Source: Thermoplasmata archaeon (GTDB lineage Archaea > Thermoplasmatota > Thermoplasmata > RBG-16-68-12 > JAGMCJ01). From it: 64,000 nt of DNA. Under the pieces are notes generated by a model, which saw only the letters and a list, made by a program, of their open reading frames with translations, made no database searches and had not been told where the DNA came from. Shown here in pieces: positions 1,743 to 40,806 of the stretch (position 1 is the stretch's first letter; each line of letters starts with the position of its first letter). The position numbers and the translations under genes are program-made. Location of the stretch: NCBI GenBank assembly GCA_046761045.1, contig JBHIFJ010000001.1, positions 11,795-75,794 on the forward strand, written 5' to 3'.

Positions 1743-1750
1743 TGTGAATC

Positions 1751-12966: not shown

Positions 12967-12976
12967 AACCTTTAAG
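12967..12976 (+). promoter_or_regulatory. Putative TATA box (CTTTAAGT) for hisS
   Basis: AT-rich element ~30 nt upstream of ATG at 13001; lies inside the GTG-extended ORF-track call, arguing for the downstream start. Confidence 0.3.
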
Positions 12977-13000
12977 TCAACGCTGCTCAATCGGCCGGCA

Positions 13001-14269: not shown

Positions 14270-14342
14270 CGCCCCGAACGGAATTTGAATCCGTGTCCCG
14301 AGCTCGACAGGCTCGGATGATAGGCCGCTACACCATCGGGGC
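14270..14342 (-). tRNA. tRNA-Asp (anticodon GTC)
   Basis: Reverse complement folds as a cloverleaf: acceptor GCCCCGA/TCGGGGC, anticodon stem CGAGC/GCTCG with loop CTGTCGA (GTC), T-arm CGGATTCAAATTCCG, discriminator G; no encoded CCA; TATA-like CTTAATATT ~30 nt upstream on the minus strand. Confidence 0.8.
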
Positions 14343-14430
14343 TTCCCTAAGAGATTCCCTTTCCGAATATTAAGGTTTGTCTGGGGCCAACCATCCAATG
14401 GAATGTGCCAACTGATCTCGCCAGGTCCGA

Positions 14431-18768: not shown

Positions 18769-18849
18769 GTCTTGGAATATTCCGCTGACACTATTTAAGT
18801 TGATATCTGGGGTGGCCGCGTGGTCGAAGCGATTGGAAAAGAGCGGGTC

Positions 18850-24729: not shown

Positions 24730-24733
24730 CTCA

Positions 24734-25849
24734 TCACGACTCCAACGACTCAGCCAACATGACGAACAGATCCTTGACCTCCGTGTTGACATCGCTCGGC
24801 TCATCCAAAGCGCACCTGAAGTGTATCAAGCATTTCGGGCACGCGGTTATCATCACATCGGCAATCTGAGATGCTTCCTTCAAGCGGCTCACCTGAATTC
24901 TCTTTGAGTCTTGATCGCAGTTCATCCAGCAGGAGGTCCCACAGCAGACTGACTTCTTTCTGTTGTCCTCCATCTCCACCAGTTCCAGGCCAGGAACCGA
25001 AAGCAATAGCTCTCTCGGGGCCTCGTAGATTCCTTGGAACCTTCCCAGTCTGCAGGAATCCTGATATGTGACCTTCTTTCCGTTCTCCTTGAACCTCAGG
25101 TCATCAAGTCTCTTCTCCAGGAAGTTAGACAGGTGGTGCAGCTCGATATCCTCCCTGAGGTCCACATAGTCCTCCTTGAAGGTGTTGTAGCATTCTGGGC
25201 AAGTGAAGACGATTTGCTTCACCTTGGACCGATTGATCATGGCAGTGTTCAGCTCGGCCAGCTCCGCAAACGTGTCTGTCTCTCCAGACCAAAGCATATC
25301 ATGACCACAACACACCTCATTCCTGAGAAGTCGTGGCTTGATGCCGATGCTGTTGAGCAGCGTTATCGCGCTCTTGGTAATCTCGGTGTGACTCCCCACG
25401 TCGCCTAGAATCAGGTCGTAGTAGGGTGCACAGCCTACAAACAGAAGAGTGGTGCCTCGGGTGTCTGTTTCCAATGAATCATCCAGCCATCCCAGTCTCT
25501 TCTGCTTCAGCTGACCGCTTGCCATTAGTCTCGCCATCGAGTGGAGAATCCCAGCGTGGGCACAGTCGCCATGGTCGTCACGCTTGACCAGTATCGCTCT
25601 GATTTCCCTCACAAAGACAGGGTAGTGAACGTCGGACGGACAATACTGGGAGCACGCCTCACATGTGAGACATTCCCACATCTCATTGGGATCGATTCTC
25701 TTCTCGCCGTAGGCGAGAATCCTCTCGACGATTCTTCGCGGGGAGTAGATGTTTCCGTTGTATGTGAGTGGACAGGCGAGCGTGCACTTGCCGCACGAGT
25801 AGCACATCTGGACCCGGTTTTCCTTGATGACCTCACCCAGTTCCATCAC
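24734..25849 (-). CDS. Heterodisulfide reductase HdrC-HdrB fusion (ferredoxin + two CCG domains)
   Basis: 371 aa; N-terminal 2x CxxCxxCxxxCP (CYSCGKCTLACP; CLTCEACSQYCP) = HdrC; C-terminal CCG motifs (NEVCCGHD; KSVCCGTSCW) = HdrB. Confidence 0.8.
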   Translation of the reverse strand: MMELGEVIKENRVQMCYSCGKCTLACPLTYNGNIYSPRRIVERILAYGEKRIDPNEMWECLTCEACSQYCPSDVHYPVFVREIRAILVKRDDHGDCAHAGILHSMARLMASGQLKQKRLGWLDDSLETDTRGTTLLFVGCAPYYDLILGDVGSHTEITKSAITLLNSIGIKPRLLRNEVCCGHDMLWSGETDTFAELAELNTAMINRSKVKQIVFTCPECYNTFKEDYVDLREDIELHHLSNFLEKRLDDLRFKENGKKVTYQDSCRLGRFQGIYEAPRELLLSVPGLELVEMEDNRKKSVCCGTSCWMNCDQDSKRIQVSRLKEASQIADVMITACPKCLIHFRCALDEPSDVNTEVKDLFVMLAESLES

Positions 25850-26265
25850 TTGCCGCCTCCCAATGGGTTGGGACCCTTGTTCTTGATCTCCTTGACGAAC
25901 TCCTTGACAACCTCAGCGAATCTTGTCCCCTCTGAGGCCGAAATCCATTCGAGGCGGATGCGGTCAGCACCCAGCCCGATGACATCGGCAACCTTTCTGG
26001 CATTCTCCATCCTGATCTCTGCTTTTTCGTTTCCGGAGTTGTAATGGCAGTCACCTGGGTGGCAGCCAGCGACCAGAACGCCATCGATGCCCTTCTCGAA
26101 AGCGCGGAATATATGACCCGGGTCGACACGACCTGAGCACATCACTCTGACTATCTTGACATTGGCTGGGTATTGGAGTCTGGAGGTCCCTGCAAGGTCA
26201 GCCCCAGAATAGGCACACCAGTTGCAGCAGAACGCAAGGATTCTTGGCTCGAACGGTTTCTTCAT
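25846..26265 (-). CDS. mvhD: MvhD-like [2Fe-2S] electron-transfer protein
   Basis: 139 aa; FCCNWCAYSGADLAG, CSGRVDP, GCHPGDCHY - canonical MvhD signature. Confidence 0.85.
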   Translation of the reverse strand: MKKPFEPRILAFCCNWCAYSGADLAGTSRLQYPANVKIVRVMCSGRVDPGHIFRAFEKGIDGVLVAGCHPGDCHYNSGNEKAEIRMENARKVADVIGLGADRIRLEWISASEGTRFAEVVKEFVKEIKNKGPNPLGGGK

Positions 26266-29253
26266 CTAAGCCCATCCCTCCAGACTCTCGATGATTCTGT
26301 CAAGCTGATCGCTCGTGCATCCGTAGACATCCAGCGCGCCAGTTGGGCACGCAACAACACAAGCACCACATCCCTTGCAGAGCACAGTATTCACCATTGC
26401 TGTTTTGATGTCTTCCGACTCCACAACCTCGATTGCGCCGAAATCGCAGACCTCAACACACCTACTGCACCATCTGCATCGTGATTCATTGACGTGAGCG
26501 ACCAAGGGCTCGACTTCTATTCTGTCCTTGGAGAGTAGCCCGAGAGCTTTCGTCGCAGCTCCTCTGCCTTGGGCAATGCTCTCGTCTGAAGGCTTCGCGG
26601 AATGGGCGAAGCCACATAGGAAGATGCCGTCGGTCGCGAATTCAACCGGCCTGAGCTTTCGGTGTGCTTCCAGGAAGAAGCCGTCCCCGCTCAGGGGGAC
26701 CTTCAGTATCTCGGACAGCTTCTCGTTGTCCGGATTCGGTCTTATGCCCGCGCTCAGAATCAGGTATTCCGGTTCGAGGAGAACATCCTCCATCAGGAAT
26801 GTGTCCTTCACGACGACATGCAGCTTCCCCTTCTCCTCCCTCACCTCGGGGGGATTCTCATCGTTGTATCTCAGGAATATGACGCCCCTCTTGGACGCCT
26901 CTCGATAGAACCTCTCCCTGAATCCATACGTCCGTATGTCCTTGTAGAGGACATAGACGGGCGTATCATGATATTTCCTCTTCACCCACAAGGCGTTCTT
27001 GATGGATGTGGAGCAGCATATGCGACTGCAGTTGTGATACTCGGGCACGCGAGAGCCCACGCACTGTATTATCACTATGCTCCTGGGATTGAAGTCCTCG
27101 TGGAGCATCCTCTCCTCCAGCTCGAGCTGGGTCATGACGTGGTCGCTCCTTCCGTACAGATACTCGGTGGGTCTGTACTCGACCGCGCCCGTGGCGACTA
27201 TGACGACCCCGTGATCGATATCGCTCCCATCCGCAAGCGTGGTGTGAAAGTTCCCAACGAATCCGTCGAGGGACTCGACCTCCGTTCCCATGTGCAATGT
27301 GATTCTGTCGTTGCTCCTCACACTCTCTATCGTGTCCGTGAGGAGCTTCTGAGGATCCATTCCCCTCAGCGTATGCGTTATCCTTCTCAGGTTCCCGCCA
27401 AGCTCGTTCGTCTTCTCGACGAGATGCGTCTTTATTCCGTGCTCCGCGAGGGACAGCGCGGCTGTCATCCCCGACAGTCCGCCTCCTATCACGAGGGCGG
27501 TCCTGTTGACGGGGACGGATACCTTCTGGAGGGGTTCCAGAAGCCTTGCCTTCGCGATCGCAGCCGCAACGAGTCCCTTGGCCTTCTCCGTCGCCTTCTC
27601 AGGCTCCTTGGAATGTACCCACGAACAGTGCTCGCGTATGTTCGCCATCTCGAAGAGATAGGGATTCAGTCCCGCCTCCCTTATCGTCTCCTGGAAGAGT
27701 TTCTCATAGGACCTTGGTGAGCAGGATGCAACGACGACCCGATTGAGGTCATGCTCCCTTATGGACTCCTTGATCCTCTCCTGGGTCGTGACGGAGCATG
27801 TGTACAGATTGTCCTCAGCGTGAACGACGTTGGGCAGCGTCCCAACGTACTCGACGACGGAGGGAACGTCCACGACACCGCCTATGTTGATTCCGCAGTG
27901 GCATACGAAGACACCGATGCGGGGGGCTTCCACTTCAACCGAGGTCCCCTCTGGCGAATCCTTGCGAGCTTTGACCTCTTCGAAAACGGGGGTGACCAGA
28001 GAGGCTGCCGATGACTGGCACACCGAGTCCGGGATGTCCTTCGGTTCAGCTATGGTTCCCGCAACGTATACGCCGGGTCTCGTGGTCTGAAAGTTCTCAA
28101 AGGAGATCGTCCTGAAGAAACCATAATCGTTGAGTTCCGCGCCAAGGACCTTGCTGAGCCCTTCCGCGTCCTTCGGCGGTCTCATCCCAACCGACAACAC
28201 GACAAGGTCGAACTCCTTGTCCTCAATCTTGTCATTCTCAGGATACCTGGTGAGGACTGCACCGCTAGGGGCGGGCTCGAGTGCCGAGACCCTATTCCCT
28301 CTGTAGATTCTTATGCCGTGCTCCTCTTCGGCCCTCATCCTGAAGTCTTCGAACTCCTTGCCAAAAGCCCTCAGGTCTATGGAGAAGATGTGGATGTCGA
28401 CTGACGGGTTATGCTCCTTCGCCACAATCGCCTCCTTCAGCGCGTACATGCAGCACACGGAGGAGCAGTACTCTCCTCCGTATACGACGGATCTGCTTCC
28501 CACGCACTGAATGAACGCGATGTTCTTGGGCTCCCTTCCGTCGGAGGGCCTCACCACCCTTCCCTGTGTCGGACCGGATGCGCTGAGGAGCCTCTCGAAC
28601 TCGAGGCTCGTTATGACATTCGGAAGGACGCCGTATCCGTACTCGTGTATCACGGAGGGATCGAAGACATCCGCTCCGGATGCGATTATGACGCTTGCCA
28701 CCTCTATCCTCGTCTCCTCCTCTCTCTGATCGAACTCTATGGCCTGCGCCTCGCAGAACTTCTCGCAGGCCCTGCATTTTCCCGTCTTGAAGTAGATGCA
28801 GTTGTCCCTGTCTATGACATATGTGGAGGGAACGGATTGCGGATATGCCCTATATATCGCCTTTCTGATGGAGCTGCCGGCATCGAACTCATTGAGCACC
28901 TTGGCGGGACACTTCTCGGAGCAGATTCCGCAGGCGACGCACTTCTCCTCGTTCACATACCTGGGATTCCTCCTTATCACGGCGGTGAAGTTCCCCCTCT
29001 CTCCCTCGAGCGCCATGAGCTCGGCGTTTGTGAGAAGCTCTATATTGGGATGTCTTCCCGCCTCCACGAGCTTGGGAGAGAGTATGCACATTGAACAATC
29101 ATTCGTGGGAAAGGTCTTGTCAAGCTGAGCCATCCGACCGCCGATGAATGGGGAGCTTTCGAGAATCGTCACCTGTGCGCCAGCGTTGGCTATATCAATG
29201 GCGCTCTGGATGCCAGCGATTCCTCCTCCTATCACAAGGATGCCCTTGTCCAA
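26266..29253 (-). CDS. Tandem-duplicated HdrA-like flavoprotein (995 aa)
   Basis: First module (aa 1-~430): FAD motif VIGGGIAGIQ, inserted ferredoxin, lacks N-terminal Cys cluster; second module (~aa 440-995): VFVCHCGINIGG Cys-cluster domain, second FAD motif LVIGGGLSGM, C-terminal 2x[4Fe-4S] (CRWCSRCVEVC; CKGCGACVVACP). Begins 1 nt after korG stop. Confidence 0.8.
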   Translation of the reverse strand: MDKGILVIGGGIAGIQSAIDIANAGAQVTILESSPFIGGRMAQLDKTFPTNDCSMCILSPKLVEAGRHPNIELLTNAELMALEGERGNFTAVIRRNPRYVNEEKCVACGICSEKCPAKVLNEFDAGSSIRKAIYRAYPQSVPSTYVIDRDNCIYFKTGKCRACEKFCEAQAIEFDQREEETRIEVASVIIASGADVFDPSVIHEYGYGVLPNVITSLEFERLLSASGPTQGRVVRPSDGREPKNIAFIQCVGSRSVVYGGEYCSSVCCMYALKEAIVAKEHNPSVDIHIFSIDLRAFGKEFEDFRMRAEEEHGIRIYRGNRVSALEPAPSGAVLTRYPENDKIEDKEFDLVVLSVGMRPPKDAEGLSKVLGAELNDYGFFRTISFENFQTTRPGVYVAGTIAEPKDIPDSVCQSSAASLVTPVFEEVKARKDSPEGTSVEVEAPRIGVFVCHCGINIGGVVDVPSVVEYVGTLPNVVHAEDNLYTCSVTTQERIKESIREHDLNRVVVASCSPRSYEKLFQETIREAGLNPYLFEMANIREHCSWVHSKEPEKATEKAKGLVAAAIAKARLLEPLQKVSVPVNRTALVIGGGLSGMTAALSLAEHGIKTHLVEKTNELGGNLRRITHTLRGMDPQKLLTDTIESVRSNDRITLHMGTEVESLDGFVGNFHTTLADGSDIDHGVVIVATGAVEYRPTEYLYGRSDHVMTQLELEERMLHEDFNPRSIVIIQCVGSRVPEYHNCSRICCSTSIKNALWVKRKYHDTPVYVLYKDIRTYGFRERFYREASKRGVIFLRYNDENPPEVREEKGKLHVVVKDTFLMEDVLLEPEYLILSAGIRPNPDNEKLSEILKVPLSGDGFFLEAHRKLRPVEFATDGIFLCGFAHSAKPSDESIAQGRGAATKALGLLSKDRIEVEPLVAHVNESRCRWCSRCVEVCDFGAIEVVESEDIKTAMVNTVLCKGCGACVVACPTGALDVYGCTSDQLDRIIESLEGWA

Positions 29254-29802
29254 CTAACTCGCCACCGAGTTCTTGCCGTACTCGTAGCCCTTCTCAAAGG
29301 CTTCGAGATTGAGCTCTTCCGTTCCCTTTGGAACCGAGTCAAGAATCGACTTCCTCATCGCATCATAGCCGACAACGTCCGATACTGCTGTGAGAAATCC
29401 AAGCATAACGATGTTGGCAACGATCTTCTTTCCGAGGTCTTCCGCCATTCTGGTGGCGGGAGCCTTGTATATCTTGTTCTTTCCACTGAACGATGAGACA
29501 TCGACGAGATCTTCATCGACAATCAGTATCGCATCATCGGCGGCCCTTACATGATATTGATTGTAGGCGTCCTGGGACATTAGAACCAGCACGTCAGGGG
29601 CAGTTCCCATCGGATAGTTGATGTCCTCGTCGCTAATGATGACATCAGCATGGCAGGCTCCGCCCCTCGCCTCTGGACCGTAGGATTGAGTCTGGACCGC
29701 TTCCTTCCTTTCATAGAGCGCGACAGCCTTTCCCAGGATGAAGCCCGCCAAGACAATGCCTTGCCCCCCGAAACCGCCCAGACGGACCTCCTTCCTGCTC
29801 AC
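29254..29802 (-). CDS. 2-oxoacid:ferredoxin oxidoreductase, gamma subunit
   Basis: 183 aa from GTG 29802 (GTGA overlap with korB stop); VRLGGFGGQGIVLAG gamma-subunit N-terminus; the ORF track's upstream extension is an overlap artefact. Confidence 0.8.
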   Translation of the reverse strand: MSRKEVRLGGFGGQGIVLAGFILGKAVALYERKEAVQTQSYGPEARGGACHADVIISDEDINYPMGTAPDVLVLMSQDAYNQYHVRAADDAILIVDEDLVDVSSFSGKNKIYKAPATRMAEDLGKKIVANIVMLGFLTAVSDVVGYDAMRKSILDSVPKGTEELNLEAFEKGYEYGKNSVAS

Positions 29803-30671
29803 TTTATCACACCCTTCGCTTTGAGCATCTCCCTTTCGAGCTCGCAGTAGGTGGGTCGCTCTATGTCTACAAAATCGCCCACGACAATGGGCTCCCCTCC
29901 TCTCATATGAAGCACAAGCTCGTCCCAAGAGGCATCGTTCTTTATCACGGACTTCTCCCTGTAGTAGCGCAGTTCCTGAAGCCCTTCTCCGAGCTTGTTT
30001 GGTCTTCCGAAGCCTGTGGGGCATGGGGAAATAATCTCGATGAACGTGAACCCCTTCTTCTTGAGCGCTTTCTCCATGGACTTCTCAAGCTGGCGGCAGT
30101 GCAAAGTTGTCCATCGTGAGACATAGACCGCTCCCACAGCAGCCGCCAGGTACGGAAGATTGAATGGATGCTCAAAGTTCCCGTAGCGGGTCGTCGTGGT
30201 CTTCGCTTCCACTGGTGTCGTTGGACCCTGCTGACCGCCGGTCATGCCATAGTTGAAGTTGTTTACACAGATTACATTGATGTCGATGTTGCGCCTGGCG
30301 GCGTGAAGGAAGTGGTTTCCCCCTATTGCGAAAAGGTCGCCATCGCCGCTGAATACAGTGATGCAGAGTTCGGGGTTGGCAATCTTGAGCCCAGTTGCGA
30401 ATGGGATGGGCCTACCGTGAGTGGTGTGATATGAGTCGATCTTGACATATCCCGCGATCCTTCCTGTACACCCGATTCCAGATAGGAGCACCTGCCCCTC
30501 AATGGGAATGTCGACCCTTTCCAACGCCTGCGCATAGCAGGTCATCGCAGATCCAAGGCCACAGCCCGAGCACCATATGTGAGGAAGCCGGTCCCGTCTC
30601 AAAATGTGGTCGAGCGGATGCTCCTCTCCAACTTCGATCCTAGTACCATCAGGCGCTTCTCGAACGCTCAA
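29799..30671 (-). CDS. 2-oxoacid:ferredoxin oxidoreductase, beta subunit (TPP-binding)
   Basis: 290 aa from TTG 30671 (SD GGAGGTG 6 nt upstream; overlaps korA stop); CSGCG..GIGC Fe-S Cys, GDGD TPP-binding motif. Confidence 0.85.
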   Translation of the reverse strand: MSVREAPDGTRIEVGEEHPLDHILRRDRLPHIWCSGCGLGSAMTCYAQALERVDIPIEGQVLLSGIGCTGRIAGYVKIDSYHTTHGRPIPFATGLKIANPELCITVFSGDGDLFAIGGNHFLHAARRNIDINVICVNNFNYGMTGGQQGPTTPVEAKTTTTRYGNFEHPFNLPYLAAAVGAVYVSRWTTLHCRQLEKSMEKALKKKGFTFIEIISPCPTGFGRPNKLGEGLQELRYYREKSVIKNDASWDELVLHMRGGEPIVVGDFVDIERPTYCELEREMLKAKGVIK

Positions 30672-31804
30672 GTTGCCACCTCCCTTATCTTGTGAAGAAT
30701 GGCCTCCGGGGACATCATGCCTCCACCTGGGTGAGTGACGCTGAGGACCCTCCCACTTGCGAACCTCTCGACCTCCCTGGAAATCTGTCCCATGTTTATT
30801 TCTGGGACAAGGAACGCCTTGGCGCTCTCGGCCAGCTCTCTTATCCTCGCCTCGGGGAAGGGCCAAGCCGTGATTAGTCGAAGGAGACCCGCCCTCATTC
30901 CCTCCTCTCTCGCGAAATTCACCGCCCTGCCAGCAGATCTTGAAGCAGCTCCATAGGAAACGACAATGATGTCAGCATCCTCCGTCTGGCTCTCCTCGAA
31001 TTCCCATATGTCCGGCGCGTGTTCTCTTATCTTTCTAATAAGGCGTGTCACCATCTCGTGCTGGACCTCTTCGTTTATTGCAGGATAGCCACGGATGTCA
31101 TGGGTCAAACCGGTGACGTGTATCCCATATCCCTCTCCAGCGATCGCCATTGGCGGAATGAGGTCCTCATCGGGTTCGTAGGGCAAGAAGTCCTTCTTGT
31201 GTGTTGGCCTCTTTCGGGACGCGATTTCTATCTCCTCGGGCTCGGGAATGACGACCCTCTCCACCATGTGTCCGATTATCTCGTCCGCCATTACGAGGAC
31301 TGGCTGGCGGAACTTCTCGGATGTGTTGAAGGCTCTAATCGTAAGGTCAAACATCTCCTGGCACGAGTTAGGAACGTAGGCAATGGCTTCGTAGTCACCG
31401 TGGGAACCCCACCGTGCCTGCATCATGTCTGCTTGTCCTACCAGAGTGGGCAATCCCGTTGACGGTCCTCCTCTCTGGACGTTGACTATGACACACGGCG
31501 TCTCCGTCACTATCCCGAGTCCGATGTTCTCCTGCATGAGGCTGAATCCGGGTCCAGAGGTTGCCGTCATTGCCTTAACCCCAGCGCATGAGGCGCCGAG
31601 GACGGCGGCGAGGCTTCCGATTTCATCTTCCATCTGAATATAGTGACCGCCAACCTGTGGCAGCCGCAAGGCCATCCTCTCGGCAGTCTCTGTCGCAGGC
31701 GTAATGGGATAGCCCGCAAAGAACCTGCAACCGGCTGCTAGAGCTCCCTCCGCGGCAGCGATATCGCCCATCATGAAATGCCTGCCAGTCAGCACCGGCT
31801 TCAT
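30668..31804 (-). CDS. 2-oxoacid:ferredoxin oxidoreductase, alpha subunit
   Basis: 378 aa from ATG 31804 ([39 protein letters not shown]); ATGA overlap with korD stop. Confidence 0.85.
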
Positions 31805-32073
31805 TCCTCCTCCTCCGTGTATATCGCGAACTCGGGGCATACTAGCATGCAGAAATTGCAGTTTATGCAGCCATCCTCCTTCCCGTCCTTTATCATTGGT
31901 GGGTGATATCCCTTCCTGTTGATCTCCCTGGACTGCTCCAGAATGCCTTTCGGACAAAACTCGATGCAGAACCCGCACCCCTTGCACCTGTCTGGGATTA
32001 AGTATACTCGCCCTTTCGGCGTCTTGACCTTGTTCCTGTCAAGCGGGGTGCGCCAGTATTTCACGAACACCAT
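31801..32073 (-). CDS. 2-oxoacid:ferredoxin oxidoreductase, delta subunit (2x[4Fe-4S] ferredoxin)
   Basis: 90 aa; [12 protein letters not shown] and [12 protein letters not shown] motifs. Confidence 0.8.
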
Positions 32074-32367: not shown

Positions 32368-33456
32368 TTGAACTCCTTCATACTGACAAGCGTGCGGAGA
32401 GGCGTGCTTTCAGACAACGAGAAGCGGGTGCTTCACGGCCTGGTTCGCCATACAAATCTGAACGATCGCGAGCTGAGCAGCGTGCTCGACATGAAGCACT
32501 CCACGGTGACGACAATCAAGCACAGACTGGCGAAGAACGGCTACTTCACCAGGAAGAGAGTCCCATTCCTTCAGAATCTCGGATGCGAAATGCTCGGCGT
32601 CACCTATGCGGATTTCAACCCAGCTGTGTCTGCTGAGGCGAGGGTTGAAAAGGCGAGGGAGAAGATTGAGATCTACGACGAACTCTTCTATTCAGTCGGG
32701 GAGACGAACAACGGGTTCTCGCTGAGTTTCTCGAGGAACTACACCAATATCGAGAAGATAGGAGATATCAGGACGCAACTCTTCGCCGAGCTTGGGTTGC
32801 TGGAAGGCAACTTCCCAACACAGGTGGTCTTTCCCTTTGAAACGAGTGAAATACTCAGGTTTCTCGACTATTCGAAATTGCTCGCCCATGACTTCGAAAT
32901 CGAAGAGGATGAGAAGGAAGAGGAGAGGCAATTCGTGAAAGGGGACCCAGTCACATTGAAGAAGCGAGAAAGAATCGCTCTGTATGCCCTTGTGAAGTTC
33001 CCTAACGCAAGAGATGTGCTCGTGGCCGAGAGAACGGGTCTCTCAAGGCATACAATCTCCAACCTCAGGCGGAAACTGGAAGAGCGAGGGCTAATGAGGA
33101 CGATAGTGATACCAGATCTTGGCAAGCTGGGGTTTGAGATTCTCTGCTTCACTCACACGAGACTCAGTCCGAAGACGCCTTTTGATCCAGAGAGCATTGA
33201 CATGAGCTTCCTGAATACCGATTCGGTGATATTCCTGGCGGCCAAGAGATTCGAGAACATCATGCTCTCCATCTATCGGACCTATGAGGATTTCAAGGTG
33301 GAGAATTCGACCCTCGTGCGCTATTTCAAGGAGAACGACATGATTGCAGATATGCCCCTAGTTCGACTCTATAGCATTAGGCGTATGATAACCATCAAGA
33401 ACCTCGTCTTCGGACCCTTCGTCAAGCAGTTACTCGGCCTGAACGTGGACTTCTAG
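32368..33456 (+). CDS. Transcriptional regulator with two winged-helix HTH domains
   Basis: 362 aa; two HTH-like segments (SDNEKRVLHGLVRHTNLNDRELSSVLDMKHSTVTTIKHRLAKNGY and KKRERIALYALVKFPNARDVLVAERTGLSRHTISNLRRKLEERGL) each followed by a helical/beta region. Confidence 0.5.
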   Translation: MNSFILTSVRRGVLSDNEKRVLHGLVRHTNLNDRELSSVLDMKHSTVTTIKHRLAKNGYFTRKRVPFLQNLGCEMLGVTYADFNPAVSAEARVEKAREKIEIYDELFYSVGETNNGFSLSFSRNYTNIEKIGDIRTQLFAELGLLEGNFPTQVVFPFETSEILRFLDYSKLLAHDFEIEEDEKEEERQFVKGDPVTLKKRERIALYALVKFPNARDVLVAERTGLSRHTISNLRRKLEERGLMRTIVIPDLGKLGFEILCFTHTRLSPKTPFDPESIDMSFLNTDSVIFLAAKRFENIMLSIYRTYEDFKVENSTLVRYFKENDMIADMPLVRLYSIRRMITIKNLVFGPFVKQLLGLNVDF

Positions 33457-33719
33457 CTGCTAATCTCTCTTCTGAGTTCGAACACGACCGGGTTTCTCGC
33501 GTCTGGGCAGCAGACAACGGTCCTGTCTGGATCATCCTCCCATGGGAATGAGCCGCCAAATTGCAGAACTCTCACAGCGGGGAAGATTGAATGCATCGCG
33601 CTTGCGCATACCTTCTCTCTGTCATCTGGATAAATGAACTCGTCGCCCACGGAATGCCCAAGGGGGCATTCACCCTTTTCAAGGATTCCTACGATTCTCA
33701 TCCTGACCTTTGAACTCAC
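33453..33719 (-). CDS. Small Cys-containing protein, TIGR04076-like (hypothetical)
   Basis: 88 aa; pattern GECPLGH..GDEF...C.....P....GG.FPWE......CPD..NPVVFELRR recalled as TIGR04076-type; 4-nt overlap with upstream regulator end. Confidence 0.35.
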   Translation of the reverse strand: MSSKVRMRIVGILEKGECPLGHSVGDEFIYPDDREKVCASAMHSIFPAVRVLQFGGSFPWEDDPDRTVVCCPDARNPVVFELRREISS

Positions 33720-34461: not shown

Positions 34462-37197
34462 ATGGGAAGACGGTTTGCTAGTCTGTGGGCAGTAATTGTG
34501 GTTGCGTTGTTCGTCGGCTCAGCCTTTGTTGGTTTCAGCTATATTTCTGAGACCTCCGGGTCCAAGGAAACAACTACCCCTGCTATCGGATGTCGGGGCG
34601 GATCAAGCCCCAGGAAGGTGTTGTTGGAGAAGTTCACAGCCGATTGGTGTCCTCCGTGTGTTTCGCAAGGACACACGATCAAGAGGCTGGAACATGAGTT
34701 TGGCCATGAGAACCTTGTGGTTCTGGTCTACCACACTTCTTCTTCCGATCAGTTCTATGTCACGGATATCTCCACTCGCCCTGGATTCTACGCTGATTCA
34801 GGCTACTATTTCCCGACTGTAATCATCGACGGAGGTGGTCCCTATACTGGGGACAGCAACACGCCCTCGCCGAATGGAGCTGAGCTGTGGGACATTGGCG
34901 GTTCCGTTTCAAACAGATACAACAACTACAACAACGACAGGGGAATGATCGAACAGGAACTCCCGCCCTCGGAAATGAGCAACATCACGATAGAATTGTC
35001 AGGCAACATCACGGGAGACACAGGATACGTGCACGCCCGAATCACGGCCACAGATCCAATCACCGAAACCAACCTAAAGGTCAGATTCATGGTCTATCAG
35101 AACCACAACTATCACAGAGACAGCAATACAGCAGAGAACGCAGCGGGGCACAAGAGGGTGTACGACAGAATCGTGCGCAAGGTTCTGAATGAGGAGAGCC
35201 TTCCTCCAAGCTTCAACATGGGCGATTCAGTGGAGTATCACAAGACCTTCCAGGTGGGTCCATGGAACGGGACATTGCCCGATAGTCACACTCAACCCGA
35301 CAAGAGAAATCTCGGGGTTGCAGTCTTTGTCCAGACGGACAACAGAAATATGTGGCATCACAGTGCCTATGGTAAGGATTTCTACAACGCCCCTGTTCTG
35401 CAGGCCGAGGCATACGACTTTGTCGAGAGCACCGTTCTCCTGGTCAATGGGGACAACACTGATACTCTTGACAATGGCTTTGAGAGATTCGAGGATGTGA
35501 TGGCGAAGGTCGGGGTCCCATACGACGTCTGGGATACCCTCGAACCCGGTGATTCCAATGTTCAGAATCTGAGGACGATGCCAGGACTGGCGGATATCGG
35601 GAAGTACGGGGCACTCGTTTGGTTCACTGGGGAGGCGACATCCACACTGTCGATGACCGACAGGACAAACCTGCAAGCGTATCTGGGAGCCACTGGAAGC
35701 TTGTTCGTCACCGGTGAGGATATCGGCCAGGACGCCCAGAGCAACGGCTGGGCCGGATGGCTACTCACCAATCTCCATGCTAGCTTTGTAACTGACACTG
35801 TCATCTATACTACTGCCGAGGGAGTCCCCGCAGACCCGATTACAAATGGGCTCTCAGGTCTGAATGTGGTCGACTCTTCGCCGAGTCGCATTTCTCCGGG
35901 TTTGGGTGCATATGAGATCCTCCGATACACTGGGACCACGAATGTGGCGGGCATCAGGGCCACTCATGACGCCGATTCGCGGGTGGTCTACATTTCATTC
36001 GACTATTTCGAGGGAACCAACACCTATCCCTCCGATCCGAATGCGGAAGCAGTAATGGACAATACCGTCTACTGGCTTGATGGTGTGGCCCCTCCCACAG
36101 TCCAAATCAGCAAGCCTCAGGCCGGCGACCTAGTTCTTCGTGAGACATGGTACACCATCCAGTGGTCCGCACACGACGTCGATATCCCAGAGGACGGTGT
36201 CGACATCGAGTACAGCACGGACTCCGGCATGACCTGGAATGCCGTTACGTCAGCTGATGTGAACGATGGCGCCCACTACTGGTTTGTCCCTGCCGTCTCC
36301 TCCAGCAACTGCAAGGTTCGAGTCTGCGTGCGGGATTCCAATGGCCAGCAATCCTGTGACGAAACAGGACTCTTCAGGATTGGGACACCGAATCTCCCGC
36401 CCGAACCCCCCATGCTTACAGCCGCCTATCTCAGCGGCGGCTCTCAGGATGTGACTCTCGCTTGGGACAAGTCCGCCGATGATGGTGGGGGATTCAACGA
36501 TGTCGTAGAGTATGACATCTATGCGGCTCCCACTCTTGGGGGCCTCCAGACATACATCGGCAGTGAACCGGCGACGGGCGCTGCAAGCTACACCTGGACA
36601 TGCGTCGGATGCGGTGACGGCGACCCGAACCAGTACTTCTTCTATGTGTGGGCTGACGACGGCGAGGAGGTGACGGCCTCTTCTGTGGTTGCAGGGAAGT
36701 TCGTAAGACCTCTTGCGACTGGATGGAATCTGGTTTCGGTGCCACTAATACAGACAGATACATCTGCAAGCGTTGTCCTTCAGACGGTGAACTCAGGGAG
36801 GGCTGTCTATTACGATGCCGCTGATCAGGCCGACCATTGGAAGGACTACGACACCAACCAGTATGTCAATGACCTGGAGGGCATCGATAGAACCATGGGA
36901 TTCTGGCTGTACAGTCCCGCTCCCGACGATTTCGTTGTTGCGGGGATTGTCCCCGATTCCACTGACGTTTACCTGCAGATAGGATGGAACCTCGTCGGGT
37001 TCCCGTCCTTCAGCACAACCTACACGATCCAGGACATGATGTCAATCACTTCAGTCAATGAGGCGGAGGCATTTGATGCAGTGTCCACACCATATCTTCT
37101 CAAGGCAGTTTCGCCAGCGGGCGCCGACCAGATGGTCCCAGGGGATGGCTACTGGGTCTACGCGACCTCCGTGAGTACGTGGACAGTTCTACAGTAG
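34462..37197 (+). CDS. Large secreted multidomain protein with N-terminal thioredoxin-like (WCPPC) domain
   Basis: 911 aa; signal/anchor MGRRFASLWAVIVVALFVGSAFVG; TlpA/ResA-like WCPPC redox motif at aa ~62; many NxS/T sequons; internal beta-rich Ig/FN3-like segments (duplicated GWNLVxxP motif); strong SD AGGAGGAGG. Confidence 0.65.
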   Translation: MGRRFASLWAVIVVALFVGSAFVGFSYISETSGSKETTTPAIGCRGGSSPRKVLLEKFTADWCPPCVSQGHTIKRLEHEFGHENLVVLVYHTSSSDQFYVTDISTRPGFYADSGYYFPTVIIDGGGPYTGDSNTPSPNGAELWDIGGSVSNRYNNYNNDRGMIEQELPPSEMSNITIELSGNITGDTGYVHARITATDPITETNLKVRFMVYQNHNYHRDSNTAENAAGHKRVYDRIVRKVLNEESLPPSFNMGDSVEYHKTFQVGPWNGTLPDSHTQPDKRNLGVAVFVQTDNRNMWHHSAYGKDFYNAPVLQAEAYDFVESTVLLVNGDNTDTLDNGFERFEDVMAKVGVPYDVWDTLEPGDSNVQNLRTMPGLADIGKYGALVWFTGEATSTLSMTDRTNLQAYLGATGSLFVTGEDIGQDAQSNGWAGWLLTNLHASFVTDTVIYTTAEGVPADPITNGLSGLNVVDSSPSRISPGLGAYEILRYTGTTNVAGIRATHDADSRVVYISFDYFEGTNTYPSDPNAEAVMDNTVYWLDGVAPPTVQISKPQAGDLVLRETWYTIQWSAHDVDIPEDGVDIEYSTDSGMTWNAVTSADVNDGAHYWFVPAVSSSNCKVRVCVRDSNGQQSCDETGLFRIGTPNLPPEPPMLTAAYLSGGSQDVTLAWDKSADDGGGFNDVVEYDIYAAPTLGGLQTYIGSEPATGAASYTWTCVGCGDGDPNQYFFYVWADDGEEVTASSVVAGKFVRPLATGWNLVSVPLIQTDTSASVVLQTVNSGRAVYYDAADQADHWKDYDTNQYVNDLEGIDRTMGFWLYSPAPDDFVVAGIVPDSTDVYLQIGWNLVGFPSFSTTYTIQDMMSITSVNEAEAFDAVSTPYLLKAVSPAGADQMVPGDGYWVYATSVSTWTVLQ

Positions 37198-37216
37198 GGC
37201 CATTGAATGTCCTAGC

Positions 37217-38515
37217 TCATTCGGGAGGCGCTCTTCGGCTCCGTAGCGCAACGACTGCTATCACAAGAACCAACACAATGATCATGACGAGAATGATCCA
37301 AGCCATTGGATCCACTGGCGGATTCCACACGCTCGCGTTGAGAGGGTCGTAGTCCTCCTTGTCGTTGACACCGTCACCGTCCGTGTCCGGATTTCTTGGA
37401 TCCGTGCCCTTCTCATCCTCCTCCTCGTCAGTCAGGCCGTCATCATCATCATCGGTATCCGCGTTGTCACCTATCCCGTCATTATCGGTGTCATTCCACT
37501 CTGTGCTATTAAGCGGGAAGACATCAACGGAGTCGAGGTAGCTGTCGCCGTCCGTGTCAGGGTTCTTCGGGTCCGTCTGCAGCCCGGTTTCTTCGTCATC
37601 CAATAGACCGTCATCATCATCATCGGTATCCGCGTTGTCACCCGTTCCATCGTTGTCGGTGTCGATCCACTCGGTCTGGTTGAGGGGAAGGGCATCAGCC
37701 GAGTCATTGTAGCCATCACCATCCGTGTCAGGATTGATAGGACTCGTGCCTATTGTGGCCTCTTGTTCATCAGTGAGCCCGTCATTGTCATCGTCCTCAT
37801 CCAGGTAGTTGGGGGTCCCGTCATTGTCTGTGTCTATGTCCGCCACCTCGAGGGGGACAAGAGTGCTTCTTGTCATCGTCCTATTCACGACAGTTATGTT
37901 CAGAGTATACGGTCCGTGCTGGTCAGGTGCGGCTATGGCAAATGAAAAGCTGCCATCGTTCTTCGTGAAGGAGTCCCAATTCTCTCCCGTTTCAATGACC
38001 TCAAGGGTGACTGCCGACCCTTCTGCAGGCGCACTGACGTTGGCATCATAGATTGCTGTTCCGTTGACCCAGACAGGGTCGTTGACCACTGGGAAAGCGG
38101 GGTCGGGAGCCGCCGAGACATTTATCCAGTGCACCACAGGGAAGTACAGCTTGTCAGTGCTGTTGATGTTTGACTGTTCGTCCCACGCCTCAATCCTGAC
38201 ATCGCCCCAAGTGCTCCCTGGAATGACACTGTACTGTGCGCCGTAGGTGGAGTCTCCATCTGGGTCCAGCATGCTCACACTGTCGCAAAGCCCTCCAGAC
38301 CAACAGATGTATGCGTCAACATTCGTGATGTTGTCCTGATCAGTGACGGTCGCGTTAAACGTCATGGTCTCGCCCTCCATAGGATACTCCGGTGTCCATG
38401 TGACGTTCGAAATCTCCGGAGCGTAGCTGTCTGCCCGTGCGGCTGGGTATGACGAAGCTATCGCGACCGACGTCAAGACCATGAAACCCAGGATTATTGT
38501 CAGAATGCCTTTCAT
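37217..38515 (-). CDS. Secreted thrombospondin-type-3-like Ca-binding repeat protein with C-terminal TM anchor
   Basis: 432 aa; signal peptide MKGILTIILGFMVLTSVAIA; >=4 repeats of DTDNDGxxDxxDxDDDDDGLxDxEE (DxDxDG Ca-binding); C-terminal TM helix followed by RSRRAPPE. Confidence 0.7.
   Translation of the reverse strand: MKGILTIILGFMVLTSVAIASSYPAARADSYAPEISNVTWTPEYPMEGETMTFNATVTDQDNITNVDAYICWSGGLCDSVSMLDPDGDSTYGAQYSVIPGSTWGDVRIEAWDEQSNINSTDKLYFPVVHWINVSAAPDPAFPVVNDPVWVNGTAIYDANVSAPAEGSAVTLEVIETGENWDSFTKNDGSFSFAIAAPDQHGPYTLNITVVNRTMTRSTLVPLEVADIDTDNDGTPNYLDEDDDNDGLTDEQEATIGTSPINPDTDGDGYNDSADALPLNQTEWIDTDNDGTGDNADTDDDDDGLLDDEETGLQTDPKNPDTDGDSYLDSVDVFPLNSTEWNDTDNDGIGDNADTDDDDDGLTDEEEDEKGTDPRNPDTDGDGVNDKEDYDPLNASVWNPPVDPMAWIILVMIIVLVLVIAVVALRSRRAPPE
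37437..37778. repeat. ~171-bp tandem DNA repeat inside TSP3-repeat gene
   Basis: Near-identical units starting CCGTCATCATCATCATCGGTATCCGCGTTGTCACC at 37437 and 37608, with a degenerate third copy after ~37780. Confidence 0.7.
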
Positions 38516-38661
38516 TGTTATCGACAGTTAATTTCCCGCTGCGGATTTAACCTTTGCCCAAATGCGTGGGCAACCTGACGACTGACAAATCCTTAAAAAA
38601 GGAGAGAGATAGCGTAGCTTCCGCTACCCCTTTCAGGAGTTCGAGAGGCAAGATCGCACGT

Positions 38662-40806
38662 TTACTCTGTCGTTGGCGGCTCCTCTTCCTCGAGAGGCTC
38701 CTCAGGCGGTGCTCCTCCTCGCCTCGCGGCTACCACTGCTGCGATGATAATCACGATGATGATTATCACAGCGATGGCGATGTATATCCACATCATGTCC
38801 AGTGGTGGAGCTTCTCCGCCAACATCGACCTCTATGTCGCCCACGTCGGTAGTCTGATCTTTCTGTATCGTGCCACTGACGTCTCCGACATCCCCGTTCT
38901 CATAGAAGACATCAAAGGTCAGCGTGCCTGGAGCGTGGTCGAACGTGAACTCTCCATTCGCGTTCGTGGTTGCCCAGACAGTTCCATCGCTGTCGCGTAT
39001 CTCGGCGTTTTCGAGTGGCTCTCCGTCCTTGTCCTTGATAACTCCGGACATTGACCCTGGAGTCAGGTCATCAACAACCTGAAGCGCAGTCGTGTTTGAG
39101 TAGTCGAGCAGGTCTGTTTGCAGATCGTGATTGTGGACTCCTCCGCTTCCGTCCGCATCTGTGAGTTCGAAGGCGAACAGGGCCTTGTCGTACTTCGCTT
39201 GTGCTGCGCTGACCTGTGCATCTGTGAATCCTAGATCAGTAGCGTCTGCCAGAGCTTGCTCAGCTGATGTCAGTGCACTCTCCGGGTATGGAACCAGTTC
39301 CTCAAAGTCTGCAGTCCAGTTGGTTACTATTTCGTCCGCCTCTTGGTCGGTGTAGGTTGTGCCTGGTGTCGTGTCGGTGTGGCAAGCGACCGTACATGAG
39401 TTGGGCATGTTGTACTGAATCCCGTGTGCTGGAGTTATCGCCCGGAACGTGTGACTCGAGATGTCATAGCTCAACGCCGATTTGGCAACCTTGGGTGTAT
39501 GGCAATCGACGCAACTCACTGCACCACTCATCCACGGACTTCCTGGAACCTCGGTCAGATTCACATCACCCAGAAGCATCTCCTTCTGGGAATGATCTGG
39601 TGTGTCCCCGGGTCCAGCGCCCTCCATGGTGTGGCAGTCTATGCAGAGCTGATCGGTTGGCAGTCTCAGCTGATGCTCGTTCGGATCTTCGTGGGTGTCG
39701 TGGCAGGCCACGCACTCGATGCCCCACTTCGCCGTTGTGAGATTCGGCTTGCTGCCCTCAGGAGCAAGTCTGTAGTCCGTCGACATGCAGTGCAAGCAGT
39801 CGTCCTGAGCGTATGGCTTGGATACGAGATTCACAAGGGAATCCTTGTGCAGTGACTGATTCCAGTCGTTGAACTGCTGATGGTGGCTCTTCGACGTGTT
39901 CCCATCACCCCAGACGCTTGGGTTGTGGTTGTAGTAGTCATCGATGCTGTCACCTGGCTTGAATCTGCCGTTATTCCATGGATATCCAGGGGCCTTTCCA
40001 GCCACTCCCAGATCGTCCTTCGCAGACCCTCGGATATGGCATTGACCGCAGACCTGTGAATCAGCAGACTTCCATATCTTGGTTGCATCTCCGTTATGGT
40101 CGCTTCCAGGTCCGTGACATGCTTCGCATCCCACGTTCAGTTCGCTCCAACTAGCTGTCCATTCCTGTGTCGTGGTATTGTACGTGATGTTGACCCCGGT
40201 GGAGTGGCAGCCCGCACACTTTCTATCCCAGGATGCGTCCTTGGCTATTGGCTTGGGATTTCCCGATGTGTCGTACCAGTCCGACAGATGGTAGGGTACC
40301 CACTCGCTTGTTGCTGTGTTCCACTGGATGGGCAGAATGTATCTGCTGTTCCCTATCTGAGCCAGGTATCTCTGCTTCCAGGCTGAGCCCAACGTCTTCC
40401 AGACCGTATAGTTGTTCGTTCCCATTGCCACGGTGTAGTTTCCGCTTGTCGAGTTGTACCACAGTTCTATGGTGACGTCCGGAATCCCAGCACCGGTGTC
40501 ATTGAAGACTGGATTCGGCCCAAGGAAATCGCCGATTACCGTCGCTGGGCTTGGGTCTTGAAGCATCTTGCTGTGCAAGGTGTTTGCCCAGTTGTCGTTC
40601 TTGTTGCCCCATGCAGCATTGTTGTGGCACGTAGCGCATGCGTCTGAACCGATATAGGTGGCGGTATCCATGTAGGAGTTGTCCTCCTCGGCGCGCGTTC
40701 CAGCGTCCCCGTCAGCCACCGATGTCGTACCAATGTAGACCAAAGCCAGGATGGCCGCCAAGGCTGCAAAAATGCCTATGGCGAGCACTATCTCTTTTCT
40801 TTTCAT
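38662..40806 (-). CDS. Membrane-anchored multiheme c-type cytochrome (7 CxxCH + 1 CxxxCH)
   Basis: 714 aa; N-terminal signal/anchor; heme motifs CATCH, CAGCH, CEACH, CGQCH, CVACH, CIDCH, CVDCH plus CTVACH (CX3CH) and a CLHCM; numerous N-glycosylation sequons; C-terminal TM helix followed by ARRGGAPPEE acidic Pro-rich tail. Confidence 0.8.
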   Translation of the reverse strand: MKRKEIVLAIGIFAALAAILALVYIGTTSVADGDAGTRAEEDNSYMDTATYIGSDACATCHNNAAWGNKNDNWANTLHSKMLQDPSPATVIGDFLGPNPVFNDTGAGIPDVTIELWYNSTSGNYTVAMGTNNYTVWKTLGSAWKQRYLAQIGNSRYILPIQWNTATSEWVPYHLSDWYDTSGNPKPIAKDASWDRKCAGCHSTGVNITYNTTTQEWTASWSELNVGCEACHGPGSDHNGDATKIWKSADSQVCGQCHIRGSAKDDLGVAGKAPGYPWNNGRFKPGDSIDDYYNHNPSVWGDGNTSKSHHQQFNDWNQSLHKDSLVNLVSKPYAQDDCLHCMSTDYRLAPEGSKPNLTTAKWGIECVACHDTHEDPNEHQLRLPTDQLCIDCHTMEGAGPGDTPDHSQKEMLLGDVNLTEVPGSPWMSGAVSCVDCHTPKVAKSALSYDISSHTFRAITPAHGIQYNMPNSCTVACHTDTTPGTTYTDQEADEIVTNWTADFEELVPYPESALTSAEQALADATDLGFTDAQVSAAQAKYDKALFAFELTDADGSGGVHNHDLQTDLLDYSNTTALQVVDDLTPGSMSGVIKDKDGEPLENAEIRDSDGTVWATTNANGEFTFDHAPGTLTFDVFYENGDVGDVSGTIQKDQTTDVGDIEVDVGGEAPPLDMMWIYIAIAVIIIIVIIIAAVVAARRGGAPPEEPLEEEEPPTTE

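Follow-up and report, generated by a model that had tools for sequence, protein, structure and literature searches.

A predicted membrane-anchored OcwA-type cytochrome with a variant fifth heme motif in a variable surface-protein locus of a Thermoplasmata archaeon

Do three adjacent genes for exported proteins in a Thermoplasmata archaeon encode one surface redox apparatus, and what kind of multiheme cytochrome does the locus contain? We analysed a 64-kb window, the whole stretch studied here, from contig JBHIFJ010000001.1 of assembly GCA_046761045.1. The genes encode a 911-amino-acid (aa) exoprotein with a thioredoxin-fold domain, a 432-aa TSP3-repeat protein and a 714-aa multiheme cytochrome, the sole open reading frame (ORF) in the window with more than one CxxCH motif. 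A first-pass annotation had combined them into a glycosylated surface redox set around a rare octaheme-class cytochrome. Re-reading the sequence recovered the three ORFs and every motif it listed (seven CxxCH, CX3CH, CLHCM and WCPPC). Hydropathy placed an N-terminal hydrophobic segment in all three proteins and a C-terminal transmembrane (TM) helix in the cytochrome and the TSP3 protein, supporting the view that all three gene products are extracytoplasmic. GC content is uniform across the three-gene region. The contig encodes an archaeal TFB, and identical proteins are deposited at NCBI under the name 'Thermoplasmata archaeon' (MFQ6106007.1 and MFQ6106005.1), which indicates that it is archaeal and argues against mis-binning.

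Using phmmer against the PDB, we found that the cytochrome matches OcwA (6I5B) at E = 7.3e-51, with residues 186-569 aligned to OcwA 121-490 in addition to an N-terminal stretch around heme 1. All nine heme motifs are collinear with those of OcwA in this alignment: eight are canonical (seven CxxCH, and CTVACH opposite CSSCH of OcwA) and the fifth, CLHCM, stands opposite CLKCH (positions in Table 1). An AlphaFold2 (AF2) model built on 70 homologues (pLDDT, the predicted local distance difference test, 90.7; pTM, the predicted template-modelling score, 0.82) contains the globular heme domain, beta-sheet insert and three-helix bundle of the OcwA fold. Searching with this model, Foldseek returned OcwA as the top match (6i5b; E = 1.7e-33, TM-score 0.83-0.84), followed by OmhA, MccA, ONR and NrfA. 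Eight heme motifs are invariant over the 70 homologues, as are H78, H237, H320, H372 and H452, while H558 and M426 are invariant in 34 archaeal orthologues. OcwA itself is a characterised surface terminal reductase for Fe oxides in Thermincola potens (PMC6703420). Of its nine hemes, six are bis-His and one is His-Met ligated; the remaining two (2 and 5) have open coordination, form the two ends of the wire and each lie beneath a His-His pair (PMC6703420). Residue conservation in the archaeal protein is consistent with the same six bis-His hemes and one His-Met heme. The distal pair over heme 2 is present as H308-H309; its heme-5 counterpart is D404-H405, and the proximal His there is replaced by Met. 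Alignment and modelled fold together indicate that the 714-aa protein is a genuine multiheme c-type cytochrome and an archaeal nine-site counterpart of OcwA, confirming the large cytochrome of the first-pass annotation and correcting its octaheme class. Its best sequence and structure matches point to OcwA and OmhA as closest relatives, rather than cytochromes of anaerobic methanotrophic archaea (ANME), Methanoperedens or Ferroglobus. The source-named members of the 120 homologues listed include none from ANME or Methanoperedens, a search result that involved no direct comparison with ANME, Methanoperedens or Ferroglobus cytochromes.

NCBI's annotation pipeline, PGAP, names the protein 'ammonia-forming cytochrome c nitrite reductase c552', that is, NrfA. 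We rejected this name: the protein has nine sites, not five, and the window holds no NrfH or NrfBCD homologue. The match to Pfam Cytochrom_C552 (PF02335) is partial, pairing cytochrome residues 427-576 with model positions 242-375 of 438. Since the name is based on this match of the C-terminal third and no CxxCK is present, the protein is not NrfA. Systematic misannotation of this kind in databases could inflate the inferred potential for dissimilatory nitrate reduction to ammonium.

The cytochrome belongs to a sizeable archaeal family. Metagenome-assembled genomes (MAGs) labelled Thermoplasmata, Thermoplasmatota or 'Methanobacteriota' contain about 35 clusters of full-length orthologues (about 700-730 aa, 36-56% identity), so that, contrary to what had been supposed, it is not rare within its class; in a library of 1.84 billion representatives, only 134 clusters match it at E≤1e-30. 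Common to the orthologues are a signal segment, the motif TR..DNSYMD.ATY, a ninth site of CX3CH form, a beta-sandwich resembling CarboxypepD_reg and a TM helix at the C terminus. In three of them (P0023, P0024 and P0027) the protein ends in PGFG, a TM helix and RRR, resembling PGF-CTERM, the C-terminal signature of archaeosortase A substrates. The window protein has no PGF at its C terminus, which consists of a TM helix (about 672-694, confirming the membrane anchor noted earlier), RR and an acidic Pro/Glu tail.

In 5 of the 8 orthologue loci examined, cytochrome c maturation (Ccm) genes and/or cytochrome b modules adjoin the orthologue. Loci L002 (complete genome CP070767.1), L004 and L094 encode CcmABCDE divergently from it, with CcmF, a 452-aa protein and a cytochrome b (single or split) following it; L004 and L094 also carry a 310-aa multiheme cytochrome and further OcwA-like cytochromes. 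At L005, CcmF, cytochrome b, an EB_dh protein and a Psr-like molybdoenzyme with NrfD lie near the orthologue, and at L093 a Rieske/cytochrome b cluster adjoins it. This respiratory context therefore suggests a Ccm-dependent cytochrome family wired to membrane quinol-oxidising modules. We also observed that the CcmF beside the cytochrome is unusually long, 928-1158 aa, in L002 (12181-15657), L004 (12226-15012) and L094 (6730-9519) compared with 712 aa in L005, each long form being followed by the conserved 452-453-aa protein, which has no significant Pfam match.

A 2022 survey reported OcwA-type cytochromes to be very poorly represented (PMC9250108). Our literature searches found no paper describing an OcwA-type family in Thermoplasmata. 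A contig scan with the archaeal family alignment gave, among the matches listed, no Thermoplasmata loci and only distant bacterial and Hydrothermarchaeota relatives (at most 38% identity, and at most 33% over full-length matches). Uncultured Thermoplasmata are mostly described as fermenters in public studies, and OcwA-type cytochromes provide, to our knowledge, the only structurally understood mineral-respiration route of wall-bearing Gram-positive bacteria. Our findings show that uncultured Thermoplasmata widely encode predicted membrane-anchored OcwA-type cytochromes, which in other members of the family lie beside Ccm and cytochrome b modules. For a major group of sediment archaea, the family thus offers a concrete, testable candidate route of extracellular electron transfer or oxyanion respiration.

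On the basis of these observations, we consider it probable, with moderate confidence, that the cytochrome is an exported, Ccm-matured, glycosylated and membrane-tethered OcwA-type heme wire, acting as a surface terminal oxidoreductase fed by a cytochrome b-type module encoded elsewhere. The protein would be exported through Sec, and a System I Ccm apparatus encoded elsewhere would load heme at the eight canonical sites (seven CxxCH and one CX3CH). It folds like OcwA according to the model and the fold search. N-glycosylation would follow, the 12 N-x-S/T sequons comparing with 6.0 expected from shuffles (p about 0.01). The beta-sandwich stalk and the C-terminal TM helix, both evident in the sequence, would hold it on the outer face of the membrane. 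Electrons may then enter from a membrane cytochrome b or a Rieske-type quinol oxidase of the kind that adjoins orthologues in other Thermoplasmata, possibly via small multiheme cytochromes, and, by homology with OcwA, would run along the heme wire to extracellular or soluble acceptors (Fe(III), humics) or, in the open pocket of heme 2, to small N/S oxyanions. Site 5 would form one end of the wire; its motif has become CLHCM and its distal pocket is altered.

Several points weigh against this reading. Heme attachment, surface location and activity, like partners and substrates, are extrapolated from homology, fold, motif conservation, topology features and orthologue context. The window contains no Ccm genes, as had been noted from the start: it has no W-rich CcmC/F motif, and tblastn with CcmB, CcmC, CcmE and CcmF of the relatives gave no match. 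Nor does the window contain an electron-input module. Its tblastn matches to all partner proteins from the orthologue loci were confined to a generic ABC ATPase and the cytochrome itself, and homologues of NrfD, the small multiheme cytochrome and cytochrome b were not found there. A CcmC profile search gave 2325 matches, many of them in Thermoplasmata, but the 236,330-bp contig itself had none; one candidate for Ccm genes of the MAG, which came from unrelated samples, was rejected. In locus L007 (GCA_022848865.1, JAJISE010000015.1), the closest sequenced relative, the orthologous gene (15743-17657) is split into ORFs of 120, 178 and 311 aa that are 91-96% identical to an intact 638-aa form, P0011, which has no beta-sandwich stalk. 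This gene is either a pseudogene or the product of assembly frameshifts; being broken, it suggests that the function may be dispensable in the clade. Finally, OcwA also reduces nitrite and hydroxylamine weakly, nitrite at about 1 turnover per minute (PMC6703420), so the physiological acceptor is unreadable from the fold.

That activity raises the alternative of a small-molecule reductase, acting on nitrite, hydroxylamine, sulfite or polysulfide, in which the open heme-2 pocket would be catalytic and the other hemes would serve as the wire. The cytochrome lies within the NrfA/c554/MccA/ONR superfamily, H308, Q310 and Q311 of the heme-2 distal pocket are nearly invariant, and OcwA does reduce both nitrogen compounds (PMC6703420). 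A PAPS (phosphoadenosine phosphosulfate)-reductase-family gene and an anion transporter adjoin here as well as in L007 and a further related locus, L003, and an ONR-like octaheme cytochrome with CAECK occurs at the same locus in L007. However, the reported nitrite turnover is slow (PMC6703420), and the absence of CxxCK, the Cytochrom_C552 match to the C-terminal third only and the lack of NrfH or NrfBCD in the window count here as they do against NrfA. In addition, H309 of the heme-2 pair varies (H/R/E/L) among close orthologues, and the NrfA-equivalent catalytic site, site 5, is precisely the degenerate one. We regard a dedicated small-molecule reductase as rather unlikely, and retain the OcwA-type surface wire as the preferred reading.

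We next consider site 5, which occupies the position of the CxxCK catalytic heme of NrfA (PMC6703420). Of the 120 closest homologues found, at least 119 carry CxxCH at sites 2-4 and 6-8. At site 5, CxxCH occurs in 45, CxxCR in 13 and CxxCM in 1 (the window protein), and the site is missing from 60. The Cys pair at this site is nevertheless invariant in the archaeal orthologues (34/34). CMSCR is fixed in a whole Thermoplasmata subclade (P0010, P0012-14, P0016, P0017, P0019, P0020, P0022, P0037, P0038, P0040 and P0061), with Arg in place of His and the Cys pair and distal HH kept; where examined (L002 and L004), the gene lies within the Ccm/cytochrome b cluster. A separate paralogue cluster (P0366, P0402 and P0403, from ENA and JGI metagenome records) has CAHCM at the same site and, as read from the sequences, R-H as the distal pair; its members are 99% identical to one another and 28% identical to the window cytochrome. 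The gene for the 552-aa P0366 (L095:8001-9659) is clustered with those for a NapC/NirT-like cytochrome, cytochrome b, an HdrD-like protein and UbiA. His at the second x of the motif occurs in none of 185 CxxC[H/R] site-5 motifs and in both CxxCM cases; therefore, CxHCM looks like a motif in its own right. A further CxxCM (P0352) and three 'CxxC-' cases were discarded as pairwise-alignment artefacts, all being CxxCH. In the window cytochrome, the peptide relevant to heme attachment at site 5 is DDCLHCMSTDYR.

The CLHCM site with its altered distal pocket holds either a heme with non-His ligation or no heme any more. A passage of PMC4158909, citing Allen 2005, states that E. coli Ccm does not mature CxxCK, CxxCM or CxxCR. 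Heme occupancy of site 5 is thus not predictable from CLHCM, a further point against the wire as proposed; the site-5 variants are either heme-free in vivo or the archaeal maturation system differs. Tentatively, CxHCM and CMSCR may be natural, functional non-CxxCH motifs at the heme that matches the Lys-ligated catalytic heme of NrfA, a reading that we consider less likely than not. The Cys pair would then still carry a heme at one end of the wire, with Met as a ligand and possibly six-coordinate (His/Met) with a high potential; the archaeal Ccm would in that case be a variant that tolerates motifs without His. Within the same reading, the Cys2-His-Met cluster might instead bind another metal. 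If true, functional CxHCM and CMSCR would represent a new axial-ligand class of c-type cytochromes and a new System I substrate specificity. The idea that the long CcmF is a dedicated lyase for CMSCR cytochromes was weakened, because L094 has the same 929-aa CcmF while site 5 of its cytochrome is CxxCH.

A less generous explanation of the same variation is that the cytochrome is decaying in this clade, with CLHCM, D404 and T437 as steps toward loss and no respiratory contribution remaining. The split L007 orthologue, the lack of Ccm genes or electron donors nearby and the absence of site 5 from about half of the 120 closest homologues found would fit. Yet the 714-aa ORF is intact, and the protein deviates at 3 of the columns conserved in at least 90%, within the family range of 0-6 (one divergent trio apart). 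The identical protein is present on four Logan contigs; together with the normal deviation count, this makes general decay unlikely. The site-5 Cys pair is kept throughout the orthologues, CxHCM recurs in an unrelated paralogue within a respiratory cluster, and the L007 gene exists in intact form as P0011. We therefore consider decay improbable. Whichever state the motif is in, labile site 5 (H, R, M, K or absent, with CxHCM recurring) offers a natural experiment on gain, retuning and loss of the catalytic heme in the NrfA superfamily and on the range of motifs that archaeal Ccm can mature.

To place the cytochrome among its neighbours, we compared the window with L003 and L007. The flanking genes (2-oxoacid:ferredoxin oxidoreductase, CitMHS transporter, rubrerythrin, TrmB regulator and PAPS reductase) are 70-86% identical among the three loci, and the adjacency of the PAPS-reductase-family gene and the anion transporter is kept in both relatives. 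Between them, identity falls: the cytochrome is 54% identical to its L003 copy and about 47% to P0011, the TSP3 protein 61% to its L003 copy and 55% to that of L007, and the 911-aa exoprotein 79% in L007 and 31%, over a partial alignment, in L003. At the position of the latter, L003 encodes an 843-aa protein on the other strand with only the terminal domains in common (25-31% identity). Given the divergent identity and differing gene content, the rubrerythrin-PAPS reductase stretch is therefore best described as a fast-evolving surface-protein slot, not a fixed operon. Only in this clade do the TSP3 and 911-aa genes share a locus with the cytochrome gene. The comparison indicates a hypervariable cell-surface island, not a demonstrated redox apparatus.

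Two further genes of L007 deserve mention. One (17955-19730, plus strand) encodes an extra 591-aa octaheme paralogue with CAECK, an NrfA/ONR-type Lys ligand, at its fourth site and a similar C-terminal anchor; it is not in the window. The other (14021-15478, minus strand) encodes a sequon-rich 485-aa protein with four Ig-like repeats, whose anchor is nearly identical to that of the adjoining cytochrome fragment (EEAPLDMMWIYLALAV...RRRGAPPEEPYEEEEPPTIE). Such likeness suggests sharing of anchor modules among the island genes.

The 911-aa exoprotein had been assigned a TlpA/ResA-like thioredoxin domain. A thioredoxin fold with a conserved CxxC is borne out; its TlpA/ResA type is not, the family profiles pointing to an Omp28/HBP35-like domain. 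Of 19 detectable homologues, 17 come from Thermoplasmata-type archaea, and the CxxC (FTADWC-xx-C, xx being PP, TW, IW, VW, QF, QY or GP) is kept in every homologue with the N-terminal region present. Pfam Omp28 (PF11551) matches 11 of the 17 family members examined (best E = 4.9e-8), the window protein matches NCBIfam Omp28 at E = 6.3e-5 (22 bits, against a cut-off of 150 bits), and the top PDB match of the family profile is HBP35, a thioredoxin-fold hemin-binding protein (E = 3.9e-4). The Redoxin, AhpC-TSA and Thioredoxin models score 16-19 bits, below their cut-offs of 23.5-26.6, as weak matches on the motif region. These sub-threshold scores, the five-domain, 911-aa architecture, the lack of ccm/res linkage and the Omp28-like family led us to reject a TlpA, ResA or CcmG identity. 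The domain calls come from profiles only, as the AF2 model (17 sequences, pLDDT 49.5) was not of a quality that would allow structural searching. The NCBI/PGAP start lies 53 codons downstream (858 aa) and removes the signal segment (window 34462-34620), which is conserved in full-length homologues at 79% identity. A Tat signal or lipobox was rejected, as RR and AIGC are not kept in 79%-identical homologues. The protein is depleted in sequons (3 against 7.8 expected) and so is not part of a uniformly glycosylated set; of the glycosylated surface set claimed initially, the sequon excess in the cytochrome and the TSP3 protein stands. Taken together, the profiles indicate a putative surface thiol-disulfide oxidoreductase of Omp28/HBP35 type, whose relation to the cytochrome is unproven.

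Could the three proteins still make up a single glycosylated redox apparatus at the surface, with the WCPPC domain acting like TlpA, ResA or CcmG to reduce the CxxCH thiols of the apocytochrome, or otherwise servicing the cytochrome? In favour of this, the genes lie side by side in the window, L003 and L007, the CxxC is conserved, and HBP35, the top PDB relative, is annotated as hemin-binding. Against this, the 911-aa and TSP3 genes are convergent, their stop codons lying 19 bp apart; each of the three genes has its own TATA-like and Shine-Dalgarno-like signals, read by eye and presumed functional, and a terminator-like element follows the cytochrome gene. The sub-threshold redoxin scores and the multidomain build, unlike the size of CcmG, also count against it, as does the differently built, opposite-strand gene at this position in L003. 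Inverted repeats flanking the 911-aa gene, sought to explain that opposite orientation, were not found. In CP070767.1, the homologue P0136 maps to 0.61 Mb, amid housekeeping genes and roughly 1 Mb away from the Ccm-cytochrome cluster (1.61 Mb), and none of the Ccm-linked loci L002, L004, L005 and L094 contains a gene of this type. We consider an integrated apparatus very improbable, and the proposed reduction of apocytochrome thiols by the 911-aa protein is unsupported in view of the convergent gene, the L003 replacement and the distance from the Ccm cluster in CP070767.1.

The remaining island protein agrees with its first description as an Asp-rich, Ca-binding repeat neighbour. It contains 16% Asp and nine DxDxDG loops, and Pfam TSP3_bac (PF18884) matches it in four stretches at 28.2 bits, above the 25-bit cut-off. 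Sequons are in excess (14 against 4.4 expected, p<0.0005), and the juxtamembrane motif and RR..APPE tail of its anchor resemble those of the cytochrome. It is most likely a Ca-dependent adhesin or matrix protein; its relation to the cytochrome is unproven.

Elsewhere in the window, positions 22333-32073 (minus strand) encode a 995-aa HdrA-like flavoprotein, a 139-aa MvhD/FlpD, a 371-aa HdrB/C-like CCG protein and an 823-aa HdrA-FlpD fusion, directly downstream of a four-subunit 2-oxoacid:ferredoxin oxidoreductase. The arrangement is kept in L007, and the oxidoreductase genes are also present in L003. Judged by its gene content, this set is a predicted cytoplasmic module of electron-bifurcation type. 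The TrmB-like regulator gene shares its 3' end with an overlapping 88-aa Cys-rich ORF (CPLGH...CCPD; 33453-33719, minus strand), which is 76% conserved in L007 and gave no match in Pfam. Strong purine skew (GC skew 0.20-0.34, AT skew 0.24-0.47) marks positions 1-6000, over a 1195-aa Glu-rich ORF (1751-5338) that lacks a Pfam match and is preceded by a gene for a zinc-ribbon protein. ARAGORN called a tRNA-Asp(GTC) at 14269-14342 (minus strand), abutting the end of ORF 12962-14269, which the Rfam tRNA model did not report at its gathering threshold. Genes for a MoxR AAA+ ATPase, a DUF58 protein and membrane proteins with DUF4129/DUF7269 occupy positions 14431-18768 (minus strand), a grouping characteristic of chaperone systems of the MoxR-vWA type.

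Table 1. Features of the three-gene region, in window coordinates; residue numbers refer to the respective protein.
Feature	Position	Strand	Basis
911-aa exoprotein ORF	34462-37197	+	ORF list and translation
Domains of the 911-aa exoprotein: signal, Omp28-like thioredoxin fold, GATase1/DUF4159-like, Ig- and Fn3-like, C-terminal GWNLV...GYW beta domain	34462..37197	+	profiles
Omp28/HBP35-like thioredoxin-fold domain, aa ~45-325	34594..35436	+	profiles
WCPPC redox motif, aa 62-66	34645..34659	+	homologue alignment
432-aa TSP3-repeat protein ORF	37217-38515	-	ORF list and translation
Parts of the TSP3 protein: signal, Ig-like and CarboxypepD_reg-like N-terminal part, TSP3 array, TM anchor	37217..38515	-	profiles, hydropathy
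TSP3 protein C-terminal TM anchor, aa ~405-425; DPMAWI juxtamembrane motif; RRAPPE tail	37241..37303	-	hydropathy, comparison
Nine DxDxDG Ca-binding loops in three 57-aa tandem units, aa 226-390	37346..37840	-	sequence repeat analysis
Terminator-like hairpin GTAGC-GGAA-GCTAC and T6 run, downstream of cytochrome stop	38595..38627	-	read by eye; function presumed
714-aa multiheme cytochrome ORF	38662-40806	-	ORF list and translation
Cytochrome domains	signal aa 1-31; heme domain ~45-480; three-helix bundle 487-580; beta-sandwich 584-659; TM 672-694; acidic tail	-	profiles, model, homology
C-terminal TM anchor, aa 672-694, then RR and Pro/Glu-rich tail	38725..38793	-	hydropathy, model, orthologues
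CarboxypepD_reg-like beta-sandwich stalk, aa 584-659	38830..39057	-	profile, AF2 model, Foldseek
Heme site 9, CTVACH (CX3CH), C471-H476; spacing kept in archaeal family	39379..39396	-	motif, alignment
Heme site 8, CVDCH, C432-H436; next residue T437, Met in ≥90% of relatives	39499..39513	-	motif, alignment
D404-H405, replacing the OcwA distal His-His pair over heme 5	39592..39597	-	alignment
Heme site 7, CIDCH, C388-H392	39631..39645	-	motif
Heme site 6, CVACH, C365-H369	39700..39714	-	motif
Variant site 5, CLHCM, C337-M341; aligned with OcwA CLKCH, the NrfA catalytic heme position	39784..39798	-	alignment; codons tgc ttg cac tgc atg
H308-H309, aligned with the OcwA distal His-His pair over heme 2	39880..39885	-	alignment
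Heme site 4, CGQCH, C253-H257	40036..40050	-	motif
Heme site 3, CEACH, C227-H231	40114..40128	-	motif
Heme site 2, CAGCH, C197-H201; counterpart of the open-coordination heme of OcwA	40204..40218	-	motif, OcwA comparison
Heme site 1, CATCH, C57-H61	40624..40638	-	motif; invariant in homologue alignment
N-terminal signal or anchor segment, aa 1-31 (KRK n-region, hydrophobic 7-25, TSVA|D)	40714..40806	-	hydropathy, AF2 helix 3-31, kept in orthologues; cleavage presumed

Among known systems, the neighbours of the cytochrome find distant counterparts in bacteria. The family of the 911-aa protein resembles Omp28 (PF11551) and HBP35 of Porphyromonas in its thioredoxin-fold domain match, its CxxC and its predicted export, but the 911-aa protein itself matches Omp28 only weakly and is archaeal, three times larger and fused to GATase1-like, Ig/Fn3-like and novel C-terminal domains. 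The TSP3 protein shares arrays of DxDxDG loops, predicted export and C-terminal anchoring with bacterial TSP3-repeat surface proteins (CglD, MtsC; myxobacteria); unlike CglD and MtsC, it lacks VWA and MYXO-CTERM parts and has an archaeal TM anchor, the similarity being at the level of the repeat only.

For the cytochrome, OcwA (TherJR_2595, Thermincola potens, PDB 6I5B) is the nearest known system, with nine collinear sites, the beta-sheet insert, the C-terminal three-helix bundle, the heme-2 His-His pair and a predicted cell-surface location in common. The two are about 27% identical over the Foldseek alignment. The archaeal protein differs in its additional parts, namely the conserved DNSYMD motif near the N terminus, the stalk of CarboxypepD_reg-like type and the TM anchor, which some orthologues have as PGF-CTERM, in having CX3CH at site 9 (CxxCH in OcwA) and CLHCM with D-H at site 5 (CLKCH with H-H in OcwA), and in belonging to a host without a peptidoglycan wall. 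OmhA, the undecaheme S-layer cytochrome of Carboxydothermus ferrireducens (PDB 6QVM), shares the superfamily core and is likewise a surface-anchored cytochrome of extracellular electron transfer (phmmer E = 1.4e-12, Foldseek E = 2.6e-20), but it has eleven hemes and an S-layer-binding domain, and its fold match is far weaker (TM-score 0.44-0.48). The octaheme sulfite reductase MccA and the nitrite reductases ONR and NrfA have the heme-packing core and helix bundle in common with it, at identities of 12-17%; unlike them, the archaeal cytochrome has no CxxCK, CX15CH or identified Cu-binding cysteines, and no NrfH-type partner in the window. MccA lacks a heme equivalent to heme 5 of OcwA (PMC6703420), which is the site that is labile in the archaeal cytochrome and at which NrfA has its Lys ligand.

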